A stretch of 58,495 nt of DNA from Candidatus Nomurabacteria bacterium. Its GTDB lineage: Bacteria > Patescibacteriota > Minisyncoccia > Phycocordibacterales > UBA9973. The number at the start of each line of letters is the position of its first letter. The first letter of the stretch is position 1. Shown here one piece after another: positions 78-35,443 of the stretch. The translations under genes were made by a program, and so were the position numbers. The notes beneath the pieces are model-generated. The model saw only the letters and a list, made by a program, of their open reading frames with translations, made no database searches and was not told where the DNA came from. The stretch covers positions 1 through 58,495 of the forward strand of contig CALRDL010000004.1 in the NCBI GenBank assembly GCA_943354905.1, read 5' to 3'.

Positions 78-148
78 TGGGATATCGTCTAATGGTAGGA
101 CAGAGGCCTTTGAAGCCTTTAATTGTGGTTCGAATCCATATATCCCAG
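78..148 (+). tRNA. tRNA-Gln(TTG)
   Basis: Acceptor stem TGGGATA/TATCCCA, D-arm GTCTAATGGTAGGAC, anticodon arm GAGGC-CT-TTG-AA-GCCTT, T-loop GGTTCGAATCC; CCA not encoded. Confidence 0.95.
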
Positions 149-828: not shown

Positions 829-1695
829 TTATTTAATAAGATCTTTTATTTTTTCAGTCACACGTTCAACGCTGTCATTTACAATAAATAAAACATTAAC
901 TCCTTTTTGTATAGATTGAGCGGTTGAATTAAACTCATCTAGCTGTCGTAAATCTAAAGTATTATTTATAGCTAATCTGAAATCACTGCTAGATTTTATA
1001 CATCTATCTGCTAAGCGTGCTGCAAGGTTCGGCAAAACTGGGGAAGGTGGTAGAACATATATTAAAATAAATTCACTACTTTCTTTATCTTTTAAATAAT
1101 CTCGCAAGCTAGTTAAATTTAAAGGATTCTCTTCGATAATAGCTACATTAGTTTTAGTTAAGATTTTTTCTAGATCAGTTTTCTGAATTCCATACTTACC
1201 CCTACCTGGTCTTTCCATATTTATTATAAACCCTCCTTTGGAAAGAATTTCATCAAATTGAATTTCATTTATAAAATTATAATGCTCACCATGACTTTCA
1301 TAAATTCTTCGCTCTCTAGTTGTAGTATTTACAACACTATCAAATCCCAAAGATTTTTTAATAGTTTCTTTACCTACTGCACCTGGGCCAGATATTCCTA
1401 AAATAATTTTTTTTGGTCGCTCTATTAATAATTTAGTTCTTATTTTTTCAAAAGTATCTTTTTCAATCAAACTAGGAATATTATTTAAGTTATTTGCTTG
1501 TACACCCAAACTTTTTGCTACTTGAGGCAGTGCTCTTTGCCATTCTATATAGTGTTGCATAAGAAAATCTATATTACTCTCCACGAGCTCTAAGACTTCT
1601 TTAGAAAAATGTTCTTTCAGGGAATTTAAATTGTTTCTAAATAATGCTTTCAAAGCCGAATTTTCTACATTACCTTCTTGTGTATTATGTATCAT
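829..1695 (-). CDS. guanylate kinase-like P-loop NMP kinase with ~90 aa N-terminal extension
   Basis: GISGPGAVGKET P-loop; NTTTRERRIYESHGEHYNFI resembles the guanylate kinase TTR--R--E--G--Y-F motif. Confidence 0.65.
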   Translation of the reverse strand: MIHNTQEGNVENSALKALFRNNLNSLKEHFSKEVLELVESNIDFLMQHYIEWQRALPQVAKSLGVQANNLNNIPSLIEKDTFEKIRTKLLIERPKKIILGISGPGAVGKETIKKSLGFDSVVNTTTRERRIYESHGEHYNFINEIQFDEILSKGGFIINMERPGRGKYGIQKTDLEKILTKTNVAIIEENPLNLTSLRDYLKDKESSEFILIYVLPPSPVLPNLAARLADRCIKSSSDFRLAINNTLDLRQLDEFNSTAQSIQKGVNVLFIVNDSVERVTEKIKDLIK

Positions 1696-2091: not shown

Positions 2092-3813
2092 ATGATTGTA
2101 AGATTTTTTAAAAAAAATAAAAAAAGAATAATTTCTGATGTCAATCCAGATGAGATATTTCTTGATTCTACAAATTTGGAAAATTTTGATACTCAACAAT
2201 TCGAAGGTCGAATAGAAAAACCCATCTCCGACAAGACTACTTTGATTTTAGGAAGTTTTTTTGTTTGTGTTATTATTATATTCGGTTTTCGTCTTTTATA
2301 TTTACAAATACAAAATGGTGAAGAATACAAGCTTCGAGCTGAGAATAATACTTTAGAGAAAGTTACTATATTTACTGAAAGAGGTATTATTTATGATAGA
2401 AATAAAGTGGAATTAGCCTGGAATAAGAAAACGAACATAGGAGTAGAGTCTACTCAAGAAATATCAGGACCAGTGATCCGTACATATATGTCTCCTGGAT
2501 TCTCTCATGTTTTAGGGTATGTCAGTTATCCCAAAAAAGATGCTGGAGAAAATTATTGGCAATATGAATTCAAAGGCATTGATGGACTTGAAAAAACATA
2601 CAACGACGCAATAAAAGGAGAGAATGGATCTAAAATCATAGAAGTAGATGCTAGAGGGACCATTCATTCAGAAAATATTATAAATGCACCAGCGAGAGGT
2701 GAGGGTTTAGTCACTAGTCTTGATTCAAGAATCCAACAACAATTATTTACTATAATAAAAGATACCTCGACAAAAAATTCGTTTGCTGGAGGAGCAGGAG
2801 TTGTTATGGATGCCACGAATGGAGAAGTCATAGCTTCTACAAGTTTCCCTGAATATGATTCTGAGATTCTGTCTCTAGGTAAAGATAAGGAAATCATAAA
2901 AAGTTACATAACTGATAAAAGAAAATTTTTTATGGACAGAACAATCTCGGGACTTTATACTCCGGGTTCCATAGTTAAACCATTTTTTGCTCTTGGTGCT
3001 TTGATAGAAGGAGTTATCGACCCATTAAAAGAAATTCTTTCTACTGGTTCTATATCTATCCAAAATCCATATGACAAAACTAAAAAGACAGTTTTTAACG
3101 ACTGGAAAGCCCATGGCTGGACAAATATGGCTGAATCTATTGCTGTATCAAGTGATGTGTATTTTTATACCATAGGTGGTGGATTTGAAAATCAAAAGGG
3201 AATAGGGATCTTGAATTTAGAAAAATATGCTCGAATGTTTGGCATTGGAAAAATGACTGGGGTTGATTTACCTGATGAAAAGTCTGGAACAATACCAAAT
3301 CCAGAATGGAAAGCTAAGAATTTTAATGGAGAAATATGGCGAGTTGGAGATACCTATAATACTTCTATCGGACAATATGGTTTCCAGGTGACCCCAATGG
3401 AGATGACTCGTGCAGTCGGAGCTATCGCAAACCTCGGCACACTAATGACTCCCCATTTTATTTTGAATGATAAAAATGCAGAAAATAAAGTAGAGAAAAT
3501 GGAAATAAAAAAAGAATATTACGATGTCGTGTATGAAGGTATGCGGGGGACTGTAACTTATGGCACTGCTACTCTTTTAAATGTACCTTATGTAGAAGTG
3601 GCAGCAAAAACTGGGACGGCGCAAATAGGAGTAGCTAAAGATAGAGTAAATTCTTGGGTTATAGGATTTTTCCCTTATGAAAATCCGAAATATGCTTTTA
3701 CTATAATGATGGAATCTGGACCTTCGAATGGTACAGTAAACGCAGCCAGTGTCATGCGACAACTCTTGGATTGGATGTATTGGAATACTCCGGAATATTT
3801 TTTAGCGAGTTAA
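2092..3813 (+). CDS. mrdA: penicillin-binding protein 2 (class B transpeptidase)
   Basis: TM anchor, RGIIYDRN, PGSIVKP (SxxK), SSDVYFY (SxD), KTGTAQ. Confidence 0.9.
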   Translation: MIVRFFKKNKKRIISDVNPDEIFLDSTNLENFDTQQFEGRIEKPISDKTTLILGSFFVCVIIIFGFRLLYLQIQNGEEYKLRAENNTLEKVTIFTERGIIYDRNKVELAWNKKTNIGVESTQEISGPVIRTYMSPGFSHVLGYVSYPKKDAGENYWQYEFKGIDGLEKTYNDAIKGENGSKIIEVDARGTIHSENIINAPARGEGLVTSLDSRIQQQLFTIIKDTSTKNSFAGGAGVVMDATNGEVIASTSFPEYDSEILSLGKDKEIIKSYITDKRKFFMDRTISGLYTPGSIVKPFFALGALIEGVIDPLKEILSTGSISIQNPYDKTKKTVFNDWKAHGWTNMAESIAVSSDVYFYTIGGGFENQKGIGILNLEKYARMFGIGKMTGVDLPDEKSGTIPNPEWKAKNFNGEIWRVGDTYNTSIGQYGFQVTPMEMTRAVGAIANLGTLMTPHFILNDKNAENKVEKMEIKKEYYDVVYEGMRGTVTYGTATLLNVPYVEVAAKTGTAQIGVAKDRVNSWVIGFFPYENPKYAFTIMMESGPSNGTVNAASVMRQLLDWMYWNTPEYFLAS

Positions 3814-29094: not shown

Positions 29095-29520
29095 ATGAGT
29101 AAAGGAATGAATAGAAATACAAATATCCGCACAATGAAATTGATCCGAGGAATTGGATCGGTTATCAACTGGAAAGATACTAAAAACAAGCAATTAATTG
29201 CTGGAATTTTAGCATTAAAAAATGCTGACGAAGCCAAGCGTTTTCTACGTGACCTTATGACCGAAAAAGAAATAAAAGAATTTGCGAACAGGCTCGAAGC
29301 CGCAACACTCCTTTCACAAAATGTGCAATACAACACCATCAGCGAAGACACAGGGCTTTCTTCTACTACAATTGCTCGTATTGCTAAATGGTTAGGTGGC
29401 TCGCTTGGTGGATATAGATTAATTTTGAATAGAATCATTCCCTCGAATAAACTCGGGACTTCCTCACGTCAGCATACTGCCTCTTCCAAAATTGGGAAAG
29501 GGTTGTATTTGAGTTCGTAA
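29095..29520 (+). CDS. YerC/YecD (TrpR-like) transcriptional repressor
   Basis: FLRDLMT.KEI.EF.NR, Y..I...TGLSSTTIARIAKWL..S.GGY. Confidence 0.88.
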   Translation: MSKGMNRNTNIRTMKLIRGIGSVINWKDTKNKQLIAGILALKNADEAKRFLRDLMTEKEIKEFANRLEAATLLSQNVQYNTISEDTGLSSTTIARIAKWLGGSLGGYRLILNRIIPSNKLGTSSRQHTASSKIGKGLYLSS

Positions 29521-29539: not shown

Positions 29540-29569
29540 AACCCCTTCTCAATTTTGAGAAGGGGTTTT
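29540..29569 (+). terminator. intrinsic terminator (candidate attenuator 3:4 hairpin)
   Basis: AACCCCTTCTCAA-TT-TTGAGAAGGGGTT followed by a short T tract. Confidence 0.7.
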
Positions 29570-29635
29570 GCGTTCTACCCAGATACGCTATGGTTACCCA
29601 CTATTTGGGATGAATTGTTCTTCAAAGGAGAAAAA

Positions 29636-30358
29636 ATGTTTGAAAAAATTGAAAAAATCCGGAGAGATGTAACAAAAGCTCTCCGGACGCTTCCAATCGC
29701 GGGCCCAGCAGCTCGCTATGACCTAGAGTACAGCTCTGCGACCGAACTCGCAGAGCTAACCGGAGTGCGGTGCCAATTTGAAGGCACGCATTACTGGTTT
29801 TGGTCGCCAGTACTCGATGAGATCTTTTTGCAGGAATTCGTCATTCCTGACAAAAAGATTATTGATGTCGGTGCCGGAAACGGCGCCTTAATCAAGGAAC
29901 TCATTTCACTCGGATGCCAGCCCGAGTGCCTTTCTGGAGTCGACATCTCCAGGAGGGCAGTGAGCCGAATTAAGGAAACCGGGGCAAGAGCTTTTCACGG
30001 CTCCCTTTCCGGCATCCCAACCGGCGAAAAATGGGATGTTATTTTTCTTTCGTACTTTGTTGATCGTGATAATGACCAACGAGGTACATTTGAAACAGCC
30101 GTCAGAATCCTCGCTGACGGTGGGGTGATAGTCCTCGAAGGGCTATTCCCCTGCGTTCTCCAAGATTCCATGGGTACAAGCTACGGTACCCAAAATGTCA
30201 CCTTCGGTGAAGATGCCGAGGAGGATATTAGACTGGTAACTGCCGAGTTCGCTCGGCTCGGTATGAAACTTCAAAAACGTAACGATGGGGAACGTTATGT
30301 TTACTCGATGGATGGGCCCGAGACCCTACCGTCGAAAACGCTTGTTTTTTCTCGGTAA
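29636..30358 (+). CDS. class I SAM-dependent methyltransferase
   Basis: IIDVGAGNG, GVDIS, WDVIFL, L..GG.IV; AGGAG before ATG 29636; GC-richer than flanks. Confidence 0.85.
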   Translation: MFEKIEKIRRDVTKALRTLPIAGPAARYDLEYSSATELAELTGVRCQFEGTHYWFWSPVLDEIFLQEFVIPDKKIIDVGAGNGALIKELISLGCQPECLSGVDISRRAVSRIKETGARAFHGSLSGIPTGEKWDVIFLSYFVDRDNDQRGTFETAVRILADGGVIVLEGLFPCVLQDSMGTSYGTQNVTFGEDAEEDIRLVTAEFARLGMKLQKRNDGERYVYSMDGPETLPSKTLVFSR

Positions 30359-30366
30359 TCGTCGTG

Positions 30367-30412
30367 GTTGCTCCCTGTAGAATGAAATATGTTTCTGCAG
30401 GGCGCGACTTTA
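30367..30412 (+). terminator. terminator-like hairpin after the methyltransferase
   Basis: GTTGCTCCCTGTAGAA...TTCTGCAGGGCGCGAC-TTT. Confidence 0.5.
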
Positions 30413-30438
30413 GTATTAAAAAAATTAAAAATAAAAAT

Positions 30439-31158
30439 ATGTATAAAAAATATAGAAAATTAAATCCAAAGATAGACAATAAAAATTGGCAGATATTATT
30501 TACTACCCAATTTCAGAATATGCAAAAATTAAATGCCATAGCAACATTTTGGATAAATGGTTTTTCGAAACTGGGAATTGATAATTCAAGACGACCTAGT
30601 ATAAAAGAAATAAATAAAATATCAGCAAAATATACCGGCTACCGCTATGTGCAAACCAAAATGAATGTAATTATGTCGAAAATTGGTTGGTATGAAATGG
30701 TAGCTCGTTATGAAATGCCTGTGACAAACTTTGTACGCAAACCAAGCGAACTTGACTACTGTGATGAACCCGATAGCTTCCATGAGATAATGGGCCACAT
30801 CGCAATGTATATAGATAAAGAATACTCAGACATGATCCAAACTTTGGCAAAACTATATATAGACGCATATTATGCAAAGCGTGAAGATCTTTTGAAAGAA
30901 ATTGATTTTATAAACGACTATGTGATAGAACTCGGACTTATTAGAGAACCATCTGGAATAAAAGCATTTGGGGCGACATTGTATTCTTCTGGTGAAGTGA
31001 AAGAAGCATTCAAAAAGAAAAATCAAAGAGTTTTGGGAAATAAAATTCCTAATGAGAAAAAGGGGTACGACAGGTCAAAACCACAAGGTAGATATTATAT
31101 TATTGAGTCGATAGATCAAATAAATAAATTACTTGTACAAATACGAAATAGATTCTAA
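30439..31158 (+). CDS. biopterin-dependent aromatic amino acid hydroxylase (divergent PhhA-like)
   Basis: DEPDSFHEIMGH and VIELGL iron ligands, KAFGATLYSSGE; start 30439 preferred. Confidence 0.85.
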   Translation: MYKKYRKLNPKIDNKNWQILFTTQFQNMQKLNAIATFWINGFSKLGIDNSRRPSIKEINKISAKYTGYRYVQTKMNVIMSKIGWYEMVARYEMPVTNFVRKPSELDYCDEPDSFHEIMGHIAMYIDKEYSDMIQTLAKLYIDAYYAKREDLLKEIDFINDYVIELGLIREPSGIKAFGATLYSSGEVKEAFKKKNQRVLGNKIPNEKKGYDRSKPQGRYYIIESIDQINKLLVQIRNRF

Positions 31159-31221: not shown

Positions 31222-31845
31222 CTATTCAATAATTAGAACCTCCCCATCTCGTAAAGTTTTATAAGGAATATTATTCTGCTCGCAAAATTCAATTTCTTTA
31301 TCAACACCTGCTGATTCAGGATGATCGGATTTATAATGAGGCATAAATGCAAAATCAACAAATCCCAAACCTTCCCAGACAGTTTCTTTCAATTCTTCAT
31401 ATGGCATTTCTGTAGAATCATCCACAACAGGATAAGCATGCAAGTCTGGAGCAAGCACACATCCAGCTGCGCTATAGCCAGCATATAGAAAATTTTGATT
31501 ATTGTTTTTTAATTCAGTGAGAATTTCATCTAGCCCACTTAATTTCATAGCTTGGCGTAAGACAAAAACATTCCCCCCACTGATAAATATTGCACCAAGC
31601 TCTTCTAACTTATTTTTTAATTCATCTTTTTTATCAAAATAATCTTGTAAGTCTAATAAATAAACTTCTAAACCAAGATCACGCAATAGTTGCATATCTC
31701 TCTCAGCTTTTTCTTTTCTAGTTTTTGAATCAGAACCAGAATGATCTCTGGCGTTAGGAATATATCCTATTTTTTTATTAGGAATTAACTGTTTAAATTT
31801 TTCAACTTCATTCCCTATTCCGTAGGATGATAAATAGAATTTCAT
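31222..31845 (-). CDS. peptidase E-like, S51 family
   Basis: YIPNA, ISGGNVF.L, GYSAAG, GLG.V, PHY. Confidence 0.85.
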   Translation of the reverse strand: MKFYLSSYGIGNEVEKFKQLIPNKKIGYIPNARDHSGSDSKTRKEKAERDMQLLRDLGLEVYLLDLQDYFDKKDELKNKLEELGAIFISGGNVFVLRQAMKLSGLDEILTELKNNNQNFLYAGYSAAGCVLAPDLHAYPVVDDSTEMPYEELKETVWEGLGFVDFAFMPHYKSDHPESAGVDKEIEFCEQNNIPYKTLRDGEVLIIE

Positions 31846-31848
31846 AAA

Positions 31849-32205
31849 TTATATTTTACTCGCACCTACTTTCGCCGCGAGGATAAAATCATTTTCAGAT
31901 AGGCCGCCGATGGCGTGGGTGGAGAGAACGAGCTCAACTTTGTTGTAATGAATCTGAATATCGGGATGATGACCTTCTTGTTCAGCAATATCAGCCACAA
32001 GATTTACAAAATTTATCGCTCCGATAAAATCAGAGAATTTAAATTCTTTGGAAATCTTTTTCGCATCCGCATCTAGTATCCAGCCACCTGCCTGCGCAGG
32101 CAGGCTGACTTCATCTAAATAATCTTGCGCATCTTCTCTCGACAAGGGTTTTATTCCCTTGCCTTCGCAAGCAATACATACTTTTTTTAATAAATCATAA
32201 GACAT
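31849..32205 (-). CDS. phhB: pterin-4-alpha-carbinolamine dehydratase
   Basis: F.F.DF, AEQEGHHPD, STHAIGGLSENDFILAAK; TATAAT 6 nt before ATG 32205. Confidence 0.93.
   Translation of the reverse strand: MSYDLLKKVCIACEGKGIKPLSREDAQDYLDEVSLPAQAGGWILDADAKKISKEFKFSDFIGAINFVNLVADIAEQEGHHPDIQIHYNKVELVLSTHAIGGLSENDFILAAKVGASKI
32087..32104. repeat. 18-bp palindrome CCTGCCTGCGCAGGCAGG, in frame in phhB
   Basis: Perfect copy encoding LPAQAG. Confidence 0.9.
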
Positions 32206-32219
32206 ATTTTTATTATACA

Positions 32220-32936
32220 CTACTTTAACCATTTATCGACTATTTTTTCTAATTGATCTAAGCTATCAAGGACAAAAAGCTTCTTGTGAAATTTATGGGC
32301 ACTGCGATTTATTTTACCAACCATATCAGCATCGTAGGGTAATTTTTCTACTTTTTCAGATAAAGCATTATTTAATTCCCCTTCTGAAGAAATGAGTCCT
32401 GTTCCTAAAACTTTTATCTTGCCTTTCACTTTTAAGAAAGAAAACTCAATCCCATACCACCAGTTATTTGCAATTTTCAATTTATCTTTTTTTGTTTTAG
32501 CTTTTACATACGCCAAGCCAAACTTTTGTACGATTCGAGCATATTTTTTATTCGCTAAAAATGGCAAATGTCCGAAAACATCATGAAAAACATCTGGGAG
32601 TGGCGTATATTCTAAATTTTTCTTTGAACGAATATATTCAGTAACTCGGATTTTTCTTTCAGCTAAACTAGAAATCCACGGACCATCTTCTTCGTATTGG
32701 ACACCAGTGCTTGCAACCTGAAAACCAGTTAGACTTTTTAATTTTATATTGATGGCACGAAAGTTCGGTATAGATCTAGCACTCAACCCTAAAAGTTTCC
32801 AGCCTTGCTTGTGCATAGGATGTGCATAGTTTTTTAAACTTTTTATTCTTCTACCAGCCAAGATACTCCAAACTTCGTGTTCTCTGTTTCGAAACTTTCT
32901 AAAAATACTTTTATTTTTTCTATTTTTTAAGTTCAT
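32220..32936 (-). CDS. phhA: phenylalanine 4-hydroxylase-like enzyme
   Basis: YIR....EYTPLPDVFHDVFGHLPFL, WYGIEF, G.GLISS.GEL; adjacent to phhB. Confidence 0.88.
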   Translation of the reverse strand: MNLKNRKNKSIFRKFRNREHEVWSILAGRRIKSLKNYAHPMHKQGWKLLGLSARSIPNFRAINIKLKSLTGFQVASTGVQYEEDGPWISSLAERKIRVTEYIRSKKNLEYTPLPDVFHDVFGHLPFLANKKYARIVQKFGLAYVKAKTKKDKLKIANNWWYGIEFSFLKVKGKIKVLGTGLISSEGELNNALSEKVEKLPYDADMVGKINRSAHKFHKKLFVLDSLDQLEKIVDKWLK

Positions 32937-32960: not shown

Positions 32961-32996
32961 AAAAGAAAAACCGCCCAACAGGGCGGTTTTTCTTTT
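32961..32996 (-). terminator. attenuator terminator upstream of phhA
   Basis: AAAAGAAAAACCGCCC-TGTT-GGGCGGTTTTTCTTTT. Confidence 0.85.
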
Positions 32997-33011
32997 GTAT
33001 CTTTTGAATTT

Positions 33012-33086
33012 TTAATTCAAATACAAAAGTCCCCGTCCCGTTGGGCGGATATAGTAATAATTAAAATTATGTATTAAAATCTTCAC
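33012..33086 (-). CDS. Tyr-rich attenuator leader peptide (MKILIHNFNYYYIRPTGRGLLYLN)
   Basis: GTG start 6 nt after a TTGACT/TGtTAATGT promoter; TAT TAC TAT run directly before attenuator segment 1. Confidence 0.75.
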   Translation of the reverse strand: MKILIHNFNYYYIRPTGRGLLYLN

Positions 33087-33130
33087 TTCTTCACATTAAC
33101 ATATCAACTTATTCAAGTCAATTGAATTTA

Positions 33131-34051
33131 TTAAATTAAATTTTTCCTAAGTCGTGCAATCTGATATATAGCAAACACTAACACAAATGAAGCTATCCAT
33201 TGAGAAATACTGAGTGAAATATTATTTACTTTCATATCTATTAAAATAGCAATAAATGGAAATGTTAATTCTAGAATGGTTGAAATATGCACTGGAGTTT
33301 TTTCTAATCCTCGATAATAAATGAGCAGTGCCACCATACCCGTAGATATAGCTATTAAAAATAATAAACCAAATTGGGTAGTAGTAGGTGCAGACAAACT
33401 AGAAATCAAACCAGAATTATTGCCAAACAAAAATAATATTGGAAAAGATATGATTAAAGTTGCTAGAAATCTGTAAAAAGTGCTGACTTTGAAATCCACT
33501 TTTCCGAGAAGCATTTTTGAAAAAGTTGTCGATGACCCCCAAGCGAAAGCTGCACCGAGAGCATAAAGTGCAGCGATGACAGTTCCTTCTCCGGTTGATA
33601 AATTTACGACGCCATTTGGAAATGTTACAAAATAAGCGGAAATAAAAGCAAGTAAAGCCCATTTGATATACCTGTTATCCATTTTTTCTTTCAAGAAAAT
33701 TCGCGCCGTAGTGATAGCAAAAATCGGCTGTAATTTTTGCAAAAGAAAAACAACAGAAAGAGAAATAAAATGTACTTTGCCAAGAGCAGTAGTGAACCAC
33801 AGAGTACCAAGAAGTCCACTCAAAACAGAGATCAAAATAATCAACCACCATTCTCTTTTAGAAAGTCTCGTTGCAAGAACATATTTATAAACAAACGGTG
33901 TCAGAATAATCAGCCCAATCAAATGCTCAAAAAATATGATAGTAATAGGTGGTAAAGAATACAAGTGTTGACGAATCAACCCATCAAAAGCCCAGAGTGT
34001 GGCTGCAATAATAATGAAGATCGGGCCAGTGTATGAATTTTCGATTTTCAT
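33131..34051 (-). CDS. EamA/DMT family transporter
   Basis: About 10 TM helices in two repeats, LQKLQPIF, LKEK, ELTFP. Confidence 0.88.
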   Translation of the reverse strand: MKIENSYTGPIFIIIAATLWAFDGLIRQHLYSLPPITIIFFEHLIGLIILTPFVYKYVLATRLSKREWWLIILISVLSGLLGTLWFTTALGKVHFISLSVVFLLQKLQPIFAITTARIFLKEKMDNRYIKWALLAFISAYFVTFPNGVVNLSTGEGTVIAALYALGAAFAWGSSTTFSKMLLGKVDFKVSTFYRFLATLIISFPILFLFGNNSGLISSLSAPTTTQFGLLFLIAISTGMVALLIYYRGLEKTPVHISTILELTFPFIAILIDMKVNNISLSISQWIASFVLVFAIYQIARLRKNLI

Positions 34052-34066
34052 GTTTTAGTATTTTTT

Positions 34067-34555
34067 TTATTTAAGCATGCTAAGTTCCAGCGCGGACAGG
34101 GTGGCTTCGCCACCGACATGAACCCTTTTTTTTGCCTGTTTGAGATTATTCACCGTCAAAACACCAAAACCAACCGGAATGTCATCTTCGAGCATAACCT
34201 CAAGCGCTCCTTCTTGCGCCATTTTGCATACATAATCAAAGTGCGGAGTCTCTCCGCGAATAATGCACCCAAGGGCGACCAGAAAATTATACCTGCCCGA
34301 ACGACCTCCGGGTTGAGCGGGTTTTTTAGTCAGTGCCATTTTATGCAAAGCAAAAGGCAGTTCAACCGAACCGGCCACGCGCACCACCCTTATATTTTTC
34401 TTAGACATTTTACATTTTTCCAAAGTTGCAAGCGCATTGTCTAAAAGCTTATCTGTAATTTCGCTATTCCACCTGGCAACAACAATGCAGGCTTTGAGTT
34501 TACTACCGTTTAAATATTTAGCTGTATTATTTTTTTGTTTACTTTTGATTTGCAT
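34067..34555 (-). CDS. ribH: 6,7-dimethyl-8-ribityllumazine synthase
   Basis: VVARWNSEIT, GSVELP, LGCIIRGETPHFDYV, PVGFGVLT; carries a PAQPGGRSGR insertion. Confidence 0.93.
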   Translation of the reverse strand: MQIKSKQKNNTAKYLNGSKLKACIVVARWNSEITDKLLDNALATLEKCKMSKKNIRVVRVAGSVELPFALHKMALTKKPAQPGGRSGRYNFLVALGCIIRGETPHFDYVCKMAQEGALEVMLEDDIPVGFGVLTVNNLKQAKKRVHVGGEATLSALELSMLK

Positions 34556-35111
34556 ATTTGGCAAGTATATCAAATTCTAAATTAACTAAATCACCGACTT
34601 TTTTATATTTTAAATTTGTGTGGAAGATGGTATACGGAATTATTTTTACAATAAAATTATTTTTAAAAGTTTGTGCCACAGTTAAGCTGATACCTTCAAC
34701 CGCAATCGACCCTTTGTAAACTAATAATTTACAAAATTTTTTATCTGGAATTTTAATTTTAAACACTTTTGAATTTCCCTCCTTTTCTATATCAAGAATC
34801 TTGCCTCGTCCATCAATATGCCCGAGTACCATATGTCCGTCCAGTCTATCACTCATCCTCATCGACTGCTCTGTATTAACTATATCATCTTTTTGCAAAA
34901 AACTTAAATTAGAAAGTTTAAGAGTTTCCGGCATATATTCGAAAAAAATATTTTTCCCCGACTTTTTCACTGTGGAACAGACACCATTAACCGAAATACT
35001 TTCGCCAACTCTCACATCTCGAAAAGGGTTTGTAACTTCCAAAAAAAGTCCACCCTGAGTGGATTTTATGCTTTTCACTTTTGAAGTTTTAGAAATTATG
35101 CCCGTGAACAT
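34539..35111 (-). CDS. ribE: riboflavin synthase (alpha chain)
   Basis: MFTGII, SISVNGVC.TV, GHMV.GHIDG, KGSIAVEGISLTV, VNLEFD. Confidence 0.93.
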   Translation of the reverse strand: MFTGIISKTSKVKSIKSTQGGLFLEVTNPFRDVRVGESISVNGVCSTVKKSGKNIFFEYMPETLKLSNLSFLQKDDIVNTEQSMRMSDRLDGHMVLGHIDGRGKILDIEKEGNSKVFKIKIPDKKFCKLLVYKGSIAVEGISLTVAQTFKNNFIVKIIPYTIFHTNLKYKKVGDLVNLEFDILAKYANQK

Positions 35112-35443
35112 TGTTTTATGTCTTCTTTAATTTGAATAATCAATTCTTTTTCAGTGTCAAATTTTTTATATTCTCGTAAAAACTTTTTTATTTCTAGAGT
35201 CACTTCTTTGCCGTATGCATCTCCATTATACCCTATTAAATGCGCTTCTACTTTTTTTGCTGGACCTATTACTATCCCCGCTCTATATTTTTTTTCATTC
35301 AAAGTCGCCTCCCCAACATACACTCCTTCACTCGGTAATTCTTTTTTTTCCTCTTTTCTTCTCTCTAAATTCACCGTCGGAAATCCCAATTTCTTCCCAT
35401 ATCCATCACCGTGTATAACCCGACCTGTGATTTTAATATCCAT
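35096..35443 (-). CDS. monofunctional riboflavin kinase (RibF C-terminal domain only)
   Basis: G.V.HGDG.GKKLGFPTVN, GVY, VEAHL, FLRE.KKF; no FMN adenylyltransferase domain. Confidence 0.88.
   Translation of the reverse strand: MDIKITGRVIHGDGYGKKLGFPTVNLERRKEEKKELPSEGVYVGEATLNEKKYRAGIVIGPAKKVEAHLIGYNGDAYGKEVTLEIKKFLREYKKFDTEKELIIQIKEDIKQCSRA

Follow-up and report, generated by a model that had tools for sequence, protein, structure and literature searches.

The stretch of DNA analysed here (the window) comprises 58,495 nucleotides (nt) of contig CALRDL010000004.1 from a Candidatus Nomurabacteria genome. On its minus strand, a 194-nt gap between an EamA-family transporter gene (33131-34051) and phhA, a predicted phenylalanine hydroxylase gene, holds all the parts of what is read, with good confidence, as a tyrosine (Tyr)-sensing, ribosome-mediated transcription attenuator, that is, a leader-peptide attenuator, on a transcript predicted to be leaderless. 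Leader-peptide attenuation is a textbook mechanism and the class itself is not new; what is new here is the amino acid (Tyr), the target gene (phhA) and the phylum. The reading draws on computed sequence features, their conservation, covariation between two of the RNA segments, alternative folds and the link of the leader to two Tyr genes, phhA and the synthetase gene tyrS. Its most likely meaning is that phhA, in a bacterium with a small genome, is switched on only when tyrosine is short.

Along the minus strand, the element begins with a -35-like hexamer, TTGACT (33116-33121), read in the sequence and followed after a 17-nt spacer by a -10-like hexamer, TAATGT (33093-33098), which matches TATAAT at three of six positions. 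Six nucleotides (gaagaa) lie between the latter and a GTG codon (33084-33086), the predicted leaderless start of a leader open reading frame (ORF) of 24 codons, MKILIHNFNYYYIRPTGRGLLYLN, which ends in TAA (33012-33086). The putative regulatory Tyr codons of this ORF, UAU UAC UAU (33051-33059), are codons -4, -3 and -2 relative to the CGC codon inside segment 1 (S1, CCGCCC, 33043-33048), and S1 is itself part of the ORF. Loop L1 (AAC, 33040-33042) and segment 2 (S2, GGGACGG, 33033-33039) follow, and together they can take either S1 as their partner, forming an anti-antiterminator, or segment 3 (S3) plus loop L2, forming an antiterminator. The inner part of the antiterminator, as given by per-sequence folds, is hairpin A (32992-33029), and the leader stop codon TAA (33012-33014) sits in its 5' arm or loop. 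Then come S3 (CCGCCC, 32981-32986), L2 (UGUU) and segment 4 (S4, GGGCGG, 32971-32976), after which the sequence continues with UUUUUCUUUUU and a U run. S3, the UGUU loop and S4 form the GC core of the terminator (32971-32986), which an A-tract and a U-tract extend to a perfect stem of 16 bp (32961-32996), the U run going on to 32960; with its flanks, the terminator has a folding energy of -22.9 kcal/mol.

An initial annotation of the stretch had described this promoter, ORF, set of segments and terminator on the minus strand, and all of them are present in the sequence. The perfect 16-bp terminator that it named is also listed by a terminator scan, at 32961-32996, although the scan reported the stem on the plus strand because it absorbed the T run into the stem. 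The leaderless 24-residue ORF gains weight as a prediction from the homologous leaders described below, in which the same short distance between the -10 box and the start codon recurs. As to the predicted target operon, phhA (32220-32936, minus strand) matches Biopterin_H with 125.9 bits, and its best NCBIfam match is phenylalanine 4-monooxygenase (NF008877, 187.3 bits, below the equivalog cut-off of 247). It is followed by phhB, encoding a pterin-4a-carbinolamine dehydratase (31849-32232, minus strand; 13-nt overlap with the phhA stop), and, 3 nt past phhB, by a pepE-like gene for an S51 peptidase (31222-31845, minus strand). The phhB gene directly follows phhA in four other loci, and a PepE match occurs in none of the 12 other loci; the peptidase, which the annotation counted with the operon, belongs to it in this window only.

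The 146-nt region that contains the leader folds with -46 kcal/mol, compared with -23.7 ± 3.3 kcal/mol for 200 dinucleotide shuffles (z = -6.8, no shuffle as good). The pattern CCGCCC-N3-5-GGGCGG occurs once in the whole genome of 750,840 bp and 35.7% GC; the GC hairpins are therefore not copies of a dispersed repeat, and this explanation was rejected.

From this architecture, we infer the transcription start, the translation of the ORF, the stalling and the response to Tyr. Transcription would start at or next to the GTG of the leader ORF and give a leaderless mRNA. When Tyr-tRNA(Tyr) is scarce, the ribosome would stall with Tyr codon -2 or -3 in the A site, and its leading edge would cover S1 and leave S2 free. 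Counted from the first base of the P site, a standard ribosome footprint reaches some 15 nt downstream, and with codon -2 in the A site this would place the edge two bases into L1, so that S1 is covered and S2 is free. S2 and L1 could then pair with S3 and L2, stacked on hairpin A, as the antiterminator, leaving S4 without a partner, and RNA polymerase would read into phhA-phhB(-pepE), whose expression would supply Tyr made from Phe. With sufficient Tyr, the ribosome would run to the stop codon, which lies 0-18 nt past S2 in the 12 leaders compared below, so that a ribosome reaching it would cover S2; S3 would pair with S4 and transcription would terminate. Without translation, the free S1 would either hold S2 (the 1:2 pairing) or pair with S4 in an extended helix, and termination would follow as well. 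In terms of what defines an attenuator, the leaders contain a short ORF that is enriched, if modestly (one to four Tyr codons), in the cognate codons, an intrinsic terminator between this ORF and the structural gene, and an antiterminator (S2 and L1 with S3 and L2) that recruits the terminator's 5' arm, so that just one of the two can form. S1 lies in the ORF just past the regulatory codons and the stop codon is suitably placed, given the assumed footprint size.

The same leader stands before all nine phhA genes of the genus, which are those of the host genome (G000) and of loci L003, L010, L047, L012, L007, L048, L013 and L014 and whose proteins are 41-79% identical. A tenth leader, L015 (genome G535), comes from another genus of the family and precedes a frameshifted phhA. 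At about 1500-1535 (plus strand) of that locus, phhA matches lie in two frames around a poly-A run, which could reflect a frameshift or an assembly error. Together with two leader-like copies from other contexts (L033 and L046), these ten phhA-linked leaders make up the set of 12 used for comparison; as L013 belongs to an unpublished genome (G765), key counts were computed with and without it. The upstream neighbour is a co-directional EamA gene in the window, L013 and L014, a divergent gene resembling phosphoribosyl-pyrophosphate synthase in L003 and L012, a Biopterin_H paralogue in L047, and other genes in L007 and L048. Because the neighbour varies and the leader stays, the element is tied to phhA rather than being just the terminator of EamA.

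The arrangement of promoter and ORF is kept throughout the set. All 12 leaders have a TTG-type -35 hexamer 16-18 nt upstream of a TA...T hexamer, an ATG or GTG start codon 6-8 nt past this -10 box, no sequence resembling a Shine-Dalgarno (SD) site, 13-14 codons ahead of the S1 codon, and a GC stem with a T run. It is this conserved position in the other leaders that supports the promoter. None of the 12 leaders has a stop interrupting the homologous frame, compared with stops in 22 of 24 alternative frames. When the ORFs are aligned backwards from S1, all ten phhA-linked leaders have UAU at codon -2, one codon before S1, and seven of them have a Tyr codon at -3 (five UAU, two UAC); the remaining cases, two Cys and one His, are each one transition away from a Tyr codon. 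By comparison, each position from -12 to -5 is occupied by four to eight different codons, and Tyr makes up 3.5% of the residues in long ORFs of the genome. The distance to the RNA structure is also fixed: in each of the 12 leaders, S1 begins 4 nt past the base that opens codon -2.

S1, S2, S3 and S4 are nearly invariant, and the informative positions are those of the loops L1 and L2, which occur in five combinations (AAC/(U)GUU, AGC/(U)GCU, GAU/AUC, AGU/GCU and GGU/GCC). Across the ten phhA-linked leaders, L1 can pair with L2 at 30 of 30 positions, G:U pairs included; when L2 was shuffled among the sequences, full complementarity arose in 4 and 7 of 20,000 trials. Leaving out L013 gives 27 of 27 positions and 32 of 20,000 shuffles. 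The G:U pairs argue for pairing of RNA rather than for a duplicated DNA site. In an alignment of the 12 leaders to a model, R1, and hence fitted to the structure of that model, three loop pairs are changed on both sides, in 8 cells compared with 2.5 on average after shuffling (0 of 500 shuffles). Slid controls yield 0-2 such cells, and the covariation score is 0.165 compared with 0.118 for shuffled alignments (1 of 500 shuffles). RNAalifold applied to this alignment returns the same helix of L1 and S2 with S3 and L2. As the L1:L2 pairs exist only when S2 pairs with S3, this covariation supports the antiterminator. Hairpin A is present in 12 of 12 leaders with differing stems (GUAU/AUAC, GCGU/ACGC, GCAU/AUGC and GCUA/UAGC); it was omitted from R1 because MAFFT misaligns it, and its support comes from single-sequence folds rather than from a formal count. 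When S1 is masked, as by a stalled ribosome, the antiterminator with free S4 is the fold of minimum free energy (MFE) in nine of the 12 leaders, and it lies within 3 kcal/mol of the MFE in the other three (the window, L003 and L015).

A search with R1 through 151 genomes of the genus gave matches in ten, six of them phhA carriers and four of them new contexts. In one species (genome G013, locus L058), a homologous leader (64.6 bits with R1) lies directly upstream of tyrS (TIGR00234, 294.9 bits, cut-off 113.8). Its leader ORF, MIKKDRKSNREISSNSSEYYYYSHPVDGFLFAN, contains four Tyr codons, UAU UAU UAC UAU, which end one codon before S1, and the peptide is otherwise unrelated to the other leader peptides. 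All four segments have changed and are compensated (S1 CCACCC, S2 GGAUGG, S3 CCAUCC and S4 GGGUGG, with loops GGU/ACU), and with S1 masked the antiterminator reaches -20.8 kcal/mol, compared with -12.1 kcal/mol for the terminator. The start codon lies 14 nt past a -10-like hexamer. Of all the observations, this tyrS leader speaks most strongly for Tyr codons as the signal, and it is one case; with it, the comparative support spans 11 leaders linked to Tyr genes. It is fairly probable, then, that the genus runs a small tyrosine "ribulon", in which one leaderless scaffold with Tyr codons gates a terminator before phhA and, in one species, before tyrS. Other frames with Tyr-Tyr near tyrS genes have no GC hairpin and were taken as non-leaders. 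The tyrS of L058 (1618-3042, plus strand) itself carries an insertion of about 68 residues (residues ~103-170) that is absent from the 29 other matched tyrS loci and that has sub-threshold matches to ACT domains (17.9 bits, cut-off 27).

With these data, most of what the initial annotation had proposed about regulation can be assessed. It had named loss of the Tyr codons from homologous leaders as grounds for giving up the idea, and Tyr is found at -2 in every phhA leader and at -3 in most; compensatory changes in both loops support the 2:3 antiterminator that it proposed, and the four-Tyr leader of tyrS supports Tyr sensing. The trpL/pheL scheme that it invoked is supported in its logic of stalling and antitermination and not as a purely three-hairpin system, since S1 also pairs with S4 in the MFE fold. 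The folding with and without S1 that it had suggested as a check likewise came out in favour of the antiterminator in most leaders, and the window is one of the exceptions.

Several observations weigh against Tyr-sensing attenuation as described, and the first group concerns the folds. The MFE fold of the free leader is, in 12 of 12 cases, an extended helix of S1-L1-S2 with S3-L2-S4 around hairpin A, which combines S1:S4, L1:L2 and S2:S3 and is not the 1:2 plus 3:4 arrangement; the likeness of S1 to S3, and of S2 to S4, gives S4 a second possible partner in S1. On its own, hairpin 1:2 has little stability (-3.4 to -6.5 kcal/mol). In the window with S1 masked, the terminator remains 3 kcal/mol better than the antiterminator (-23.9 compared with -20.9 kcal/mol), and read-through here therefore needs a kinetic argument, namely that 2:3 forms before S4 is made. 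Termination in the absence of a ribosome may, in these models, use S1:S4 as well as S3:S4, and a stalled ribosome could possibly act directly, by occluding S1 where this forms the 5' strand of a terminator made by long-range S1:S4 pairing. The regulatory logic is the same in both schemes, as read-through would be promoted by a ribosome that sits on S1.

The second group concerns the leader ORF and the distribution of the element. The promoter is absent from a consensus-scan listing of the window because of its imperfect -10 box, and six of the 12 leaders start with GTG, without an SD sequence. The regulatory Tyr codons number just one to three per phhA leader, and in two of ten a single Tyr is preceded by Cys. 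The genomes are related, so the leader counts are not independent. A metagenome contig (L004), the one locus returned by a metagenome scan with a PhhA alignment, carries a 76%-identical phhA 18 nt after a co-directional gene and has no leader. Among 30 tyrS loci examined with R1 and with a scan for Tyr-Tyr ORFs, just one has the leader, and the tyrS of the host genome has none. In addition, four leader-like copies lie by genes without an evident link to Tyr. One (L033) precedes a SLOG-cluster-4 gene, reads Tyr-His rather than Tyr-Tyr (His at -2) and has a weakened terminator; two (L046 and L057, loci 74% identical over about 330 nt) precede a small ORF, and one (L059) stands without a gene next to it. 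The loops of L033 and L046 have kept complementarity at two and one of three positions, respectively, and these two copies may be relics or have another role. No phhA remnants were found beside the four orphan copies. The small ORF behind the copies in L046 (~1314-1430, minus strand) and L057 encodes a second Tyr cluster (..TTYYYGYQ.. and ..NFYYHGYC..), and the next gene in L046 encodes a free-standing protein resembling tRNA-Thr_ED.

Some of these points would fit a translation-coupled attenuator that senses translation capacity in general, or several amino acids, and in which the Tyr codons are incidental. The low number of Tyr codons, the Cys or His at -3 in three of ten leaders and the four copies beside genes without an evident Tyr link all fit it. 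Yet codon -2 is Tyr in each of the ten phhA leaders while the neighbouring codons vary freely, four Tyr codons occur in the otherwise unrelated leader peptide of the tyrS copy, and both linked genes, phhA and tyrS, concern Tyr; this variant is accordingly considered unlikely. Slightly less probable still is that the ORF is incidental and that the element is a riboswitch or is bound by an RNA-binding protein, or that a nearby TrpR-family protein acts on the DNA. The alternative helices are indeed well supported by themselves, and in the window, L003 and L012 phhA has a TrpR-family gene in its vicinity. A riboswitch would be hard to reconcile with the lack of conserved unpaired core nucleotides, with a hairpin A that varies in both sequence and length and with the absence of any Rfam family at threshold, while the G:U pairs of the loops favour RNA pairing over a repeated DNA operator. 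Outside the stems, the sole invariant feature is a Tyr codon that lies in frame at a constant distance from S1, in an ORF whose start is fixed relative to the promoter.

The conserved stretch Y-x-[RC]-P-x-G-R in the leader peptide brings to mind a nascent-peptide arrest sensor of the TnaC type, in which Y-[ILF]-[RC]-P-x-G-R would stall the ribosome on free Tyr or Phe. This is very unlikely, as the S1-L1-S2 hairpin codes for [RC]-P-x-G-R, non-synonymous changes in the middle codon of this stretch (T/A/M/V) track those of L2, which indicates selection on the RNA, and the tyrS copy has S-H-P-V-D-G in its place. The least probable reading of all is that nothing is regulated, and that the stretch is simply the terminator of the upstream EamA gene, or else a small RNA gene in its own right, its ORF being due to chance. 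The window terminator does lie about 135 nt past the EamA stop on the same strand, and promoter and terminator would bound an RNA of about 125 nt. In other loci, however, the upstream gene is divergent (L003 and L012) or different (L047, L007 and L048) and the element still precedes phhA, its ORF, Tyr codon and loop covariation being conserved as well.

The proposed attenuator resembles the enterobacterial leaders trpL, pheL/pheA, pheST, hisL, thrL and leuL in its short ORF with cognate codons and S1 inside this ORF, in the mutually exclusive pairings 1:2, 2:3 and 3:4, in the intrinsic terminator before the first structural gene and in the stop codon placed so that an unstalled ribosome covers S2. 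As with pheA and pheST, a gene for synthesis (phhA) and, in one congener, a gene for the synthetase (tyrS) carry the leader. Unlike in these leaders, the amino acid here is Tyr, the gene encodes a Phe hydroxylase rather than an enzyme of a de novo pathway, and the host belongs to the Patescibacteria. Further differences are the predicted leaderless start (GTG or ATG 6-8 nt past the -10 box), the 1:4 extended helix, which is possible and is the MFE fold, and a set of just one to four regulatory codons. In Pseudomonas, phhA(B) is controlled in response to aromatic amino acids by PhhR, which is a DNA-binding activator of the TyrR type serving Phe catabolism rather than a cis-acting RNA.

No Rfam family matches the leader region at its gathering threshold. 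The Thr_leader (RF00506, 40.6 bits, cut-off 55), Phe_leader (RF01859, 38.5 bits, cut-off 55) and Leu_leader (RF00512, 36.9 bits, cut-off 50) models all score below their limits, and membership in these families was rejected; the same families also match the plus strand (28-36.5 bits), and the matches were judged to be mostly driven by the terminator. A T-box is not among the 65 Rfam matches at E ≤ 10 between 32800 and 33300. A T-box binds uncharged tRNA directly and without an ORF, unlike the present element, which is only about 125 nt long. A full-text literature search, with most subscription journals lying outside it, brought up no paper about a leader peptide for Tyr and none about attenuation that concerns phhA or Patescibacteria.

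Partial parallels exist in other bacteria. According to a review (PMC11802643, on Neshat et al. 2014), the aroR leader before aroF of Corynebacterium glutamicum contains a Phe-Tyr-Phe run and responds to Phe and not to Tyr. It would share with the phhA leader a peptide with an aromatic run that includes Tyr, ribosome stalling and a gene of aromatic amino acids as the target, and it differs in that Tyr is the only conserved regulatory codon here. In mycobacteria, leaderless short ORFs with polycysteine tracts act on translation (Canestrari et al., bioRxiv 10.1101/834739). The common ground would be a leaderless sensory ORF (here a predicted one), a stalled ribosome that remodels the downstream mRNA, a single amino acid as the signal and several loci sharing this signal as a "ribulon"; in contrast to the mycobacterial Cys signal, the amino acid here is Tyr, and the strong intrinsic terminator points to transcription termination. 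Tyr genes of Firmicutes, tyrS included, use T-boxes, and a 2005 survey of Actinobacteria reports no conserved RNA regulatory structures upstream of the Tyr operons there (PMC1262725). As with a Tyr T-box, charging of Tyr-tRNA would control the choice between terminator and antiterminator before Tyr genes including tyrS.

The host (G000) is a genome of the Patescibacteria, or Candidate Phyla Radiation (CPR), that is 96% complete. At E ≤ 1e-30, phhA is found in nine of 212 genomes of the genus, the host included, and in nine of 401 genomes of the family; it is found in none of 40 relatives drawn, and in a sample of the order it occurs in two of 401 genomes, one being the host and the other having a distant match of the paralogue type. 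A scan of genome contigs returned one locus, L003. Prephenate dehydrogenase (PDH_N) and chorismate synthase were not found in the host genome, both being detected in 14 of 14 control genomes; this leaves the hydroxylase as the sole visible route to Tyr. One gene for tRNA-Tyr(GUA) is present. The proposed attenuator in turn supports reading this divergent hydroxylase as the enzyme that supplies Tyr. That terminator-type RNA switches are used in the genus follows from an S-adenosylmethionine (SAM) riboswitch (RF00162, 52 bits, above threshold) before metK at 2786-2903 (minus strand) of L033. A motif of 14 nt, searched for in 401 genomes of the family, gave 33 matches, compared with 34 for a reversed control; nine of the 33 were leader-like on inspection, and L015, L047 and L048, with a variant S1 or S2, were missed.

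If the reading is true, this would be the first leader-peptide attenuator specific for Tyr and the first amino-acid attenuator shown for the CPR. Ultra-small genomes that are poor in regulators would then sense one amino acid through coupled transcription and translation. In the tyrS-linked copy, nature would have transferred the scaffold to a second Tyr gene. At about 125 nt, and with covariation in its support, the RNA switch is compact and open to tests in vitro; this is of value since most of these organisms cannot be cultured.

The surroundings of phhA offer some further observations. Convergent to the phhA operon, on the plus strand, lie a TrpR-family gene (29095-29520), a methyltransferase gene (29555-30358) and a Biopterin_H paralogue (30364-31158) whose product is 25% identical to that of phhA. 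TrpR-like genes also occur near phhA in L003 and L012, and in L047 a methyltransferase gene and a Biopterin_H paralogue lie directly upstream of the leader. This cluster may constitute a second layer of aromatic amino-acid control, or provide a second hydroxylase. Upstream of EamA, the ORFs at 34067-35443 (minus strand) resemble riboflavin genes when their translations are inspected by eye (ribH-, ribE- and riboflavin-kinase-like) and are followed by a putative gene for aspartyl-tRNA synthetase; in L003, the two rib genes are gone, and the kinase-like ORF and EamA are kept. Elsewhere in the window, a tRNA gene at 78-148 (plus strand) is the sole match to Rfam at the gathering level.

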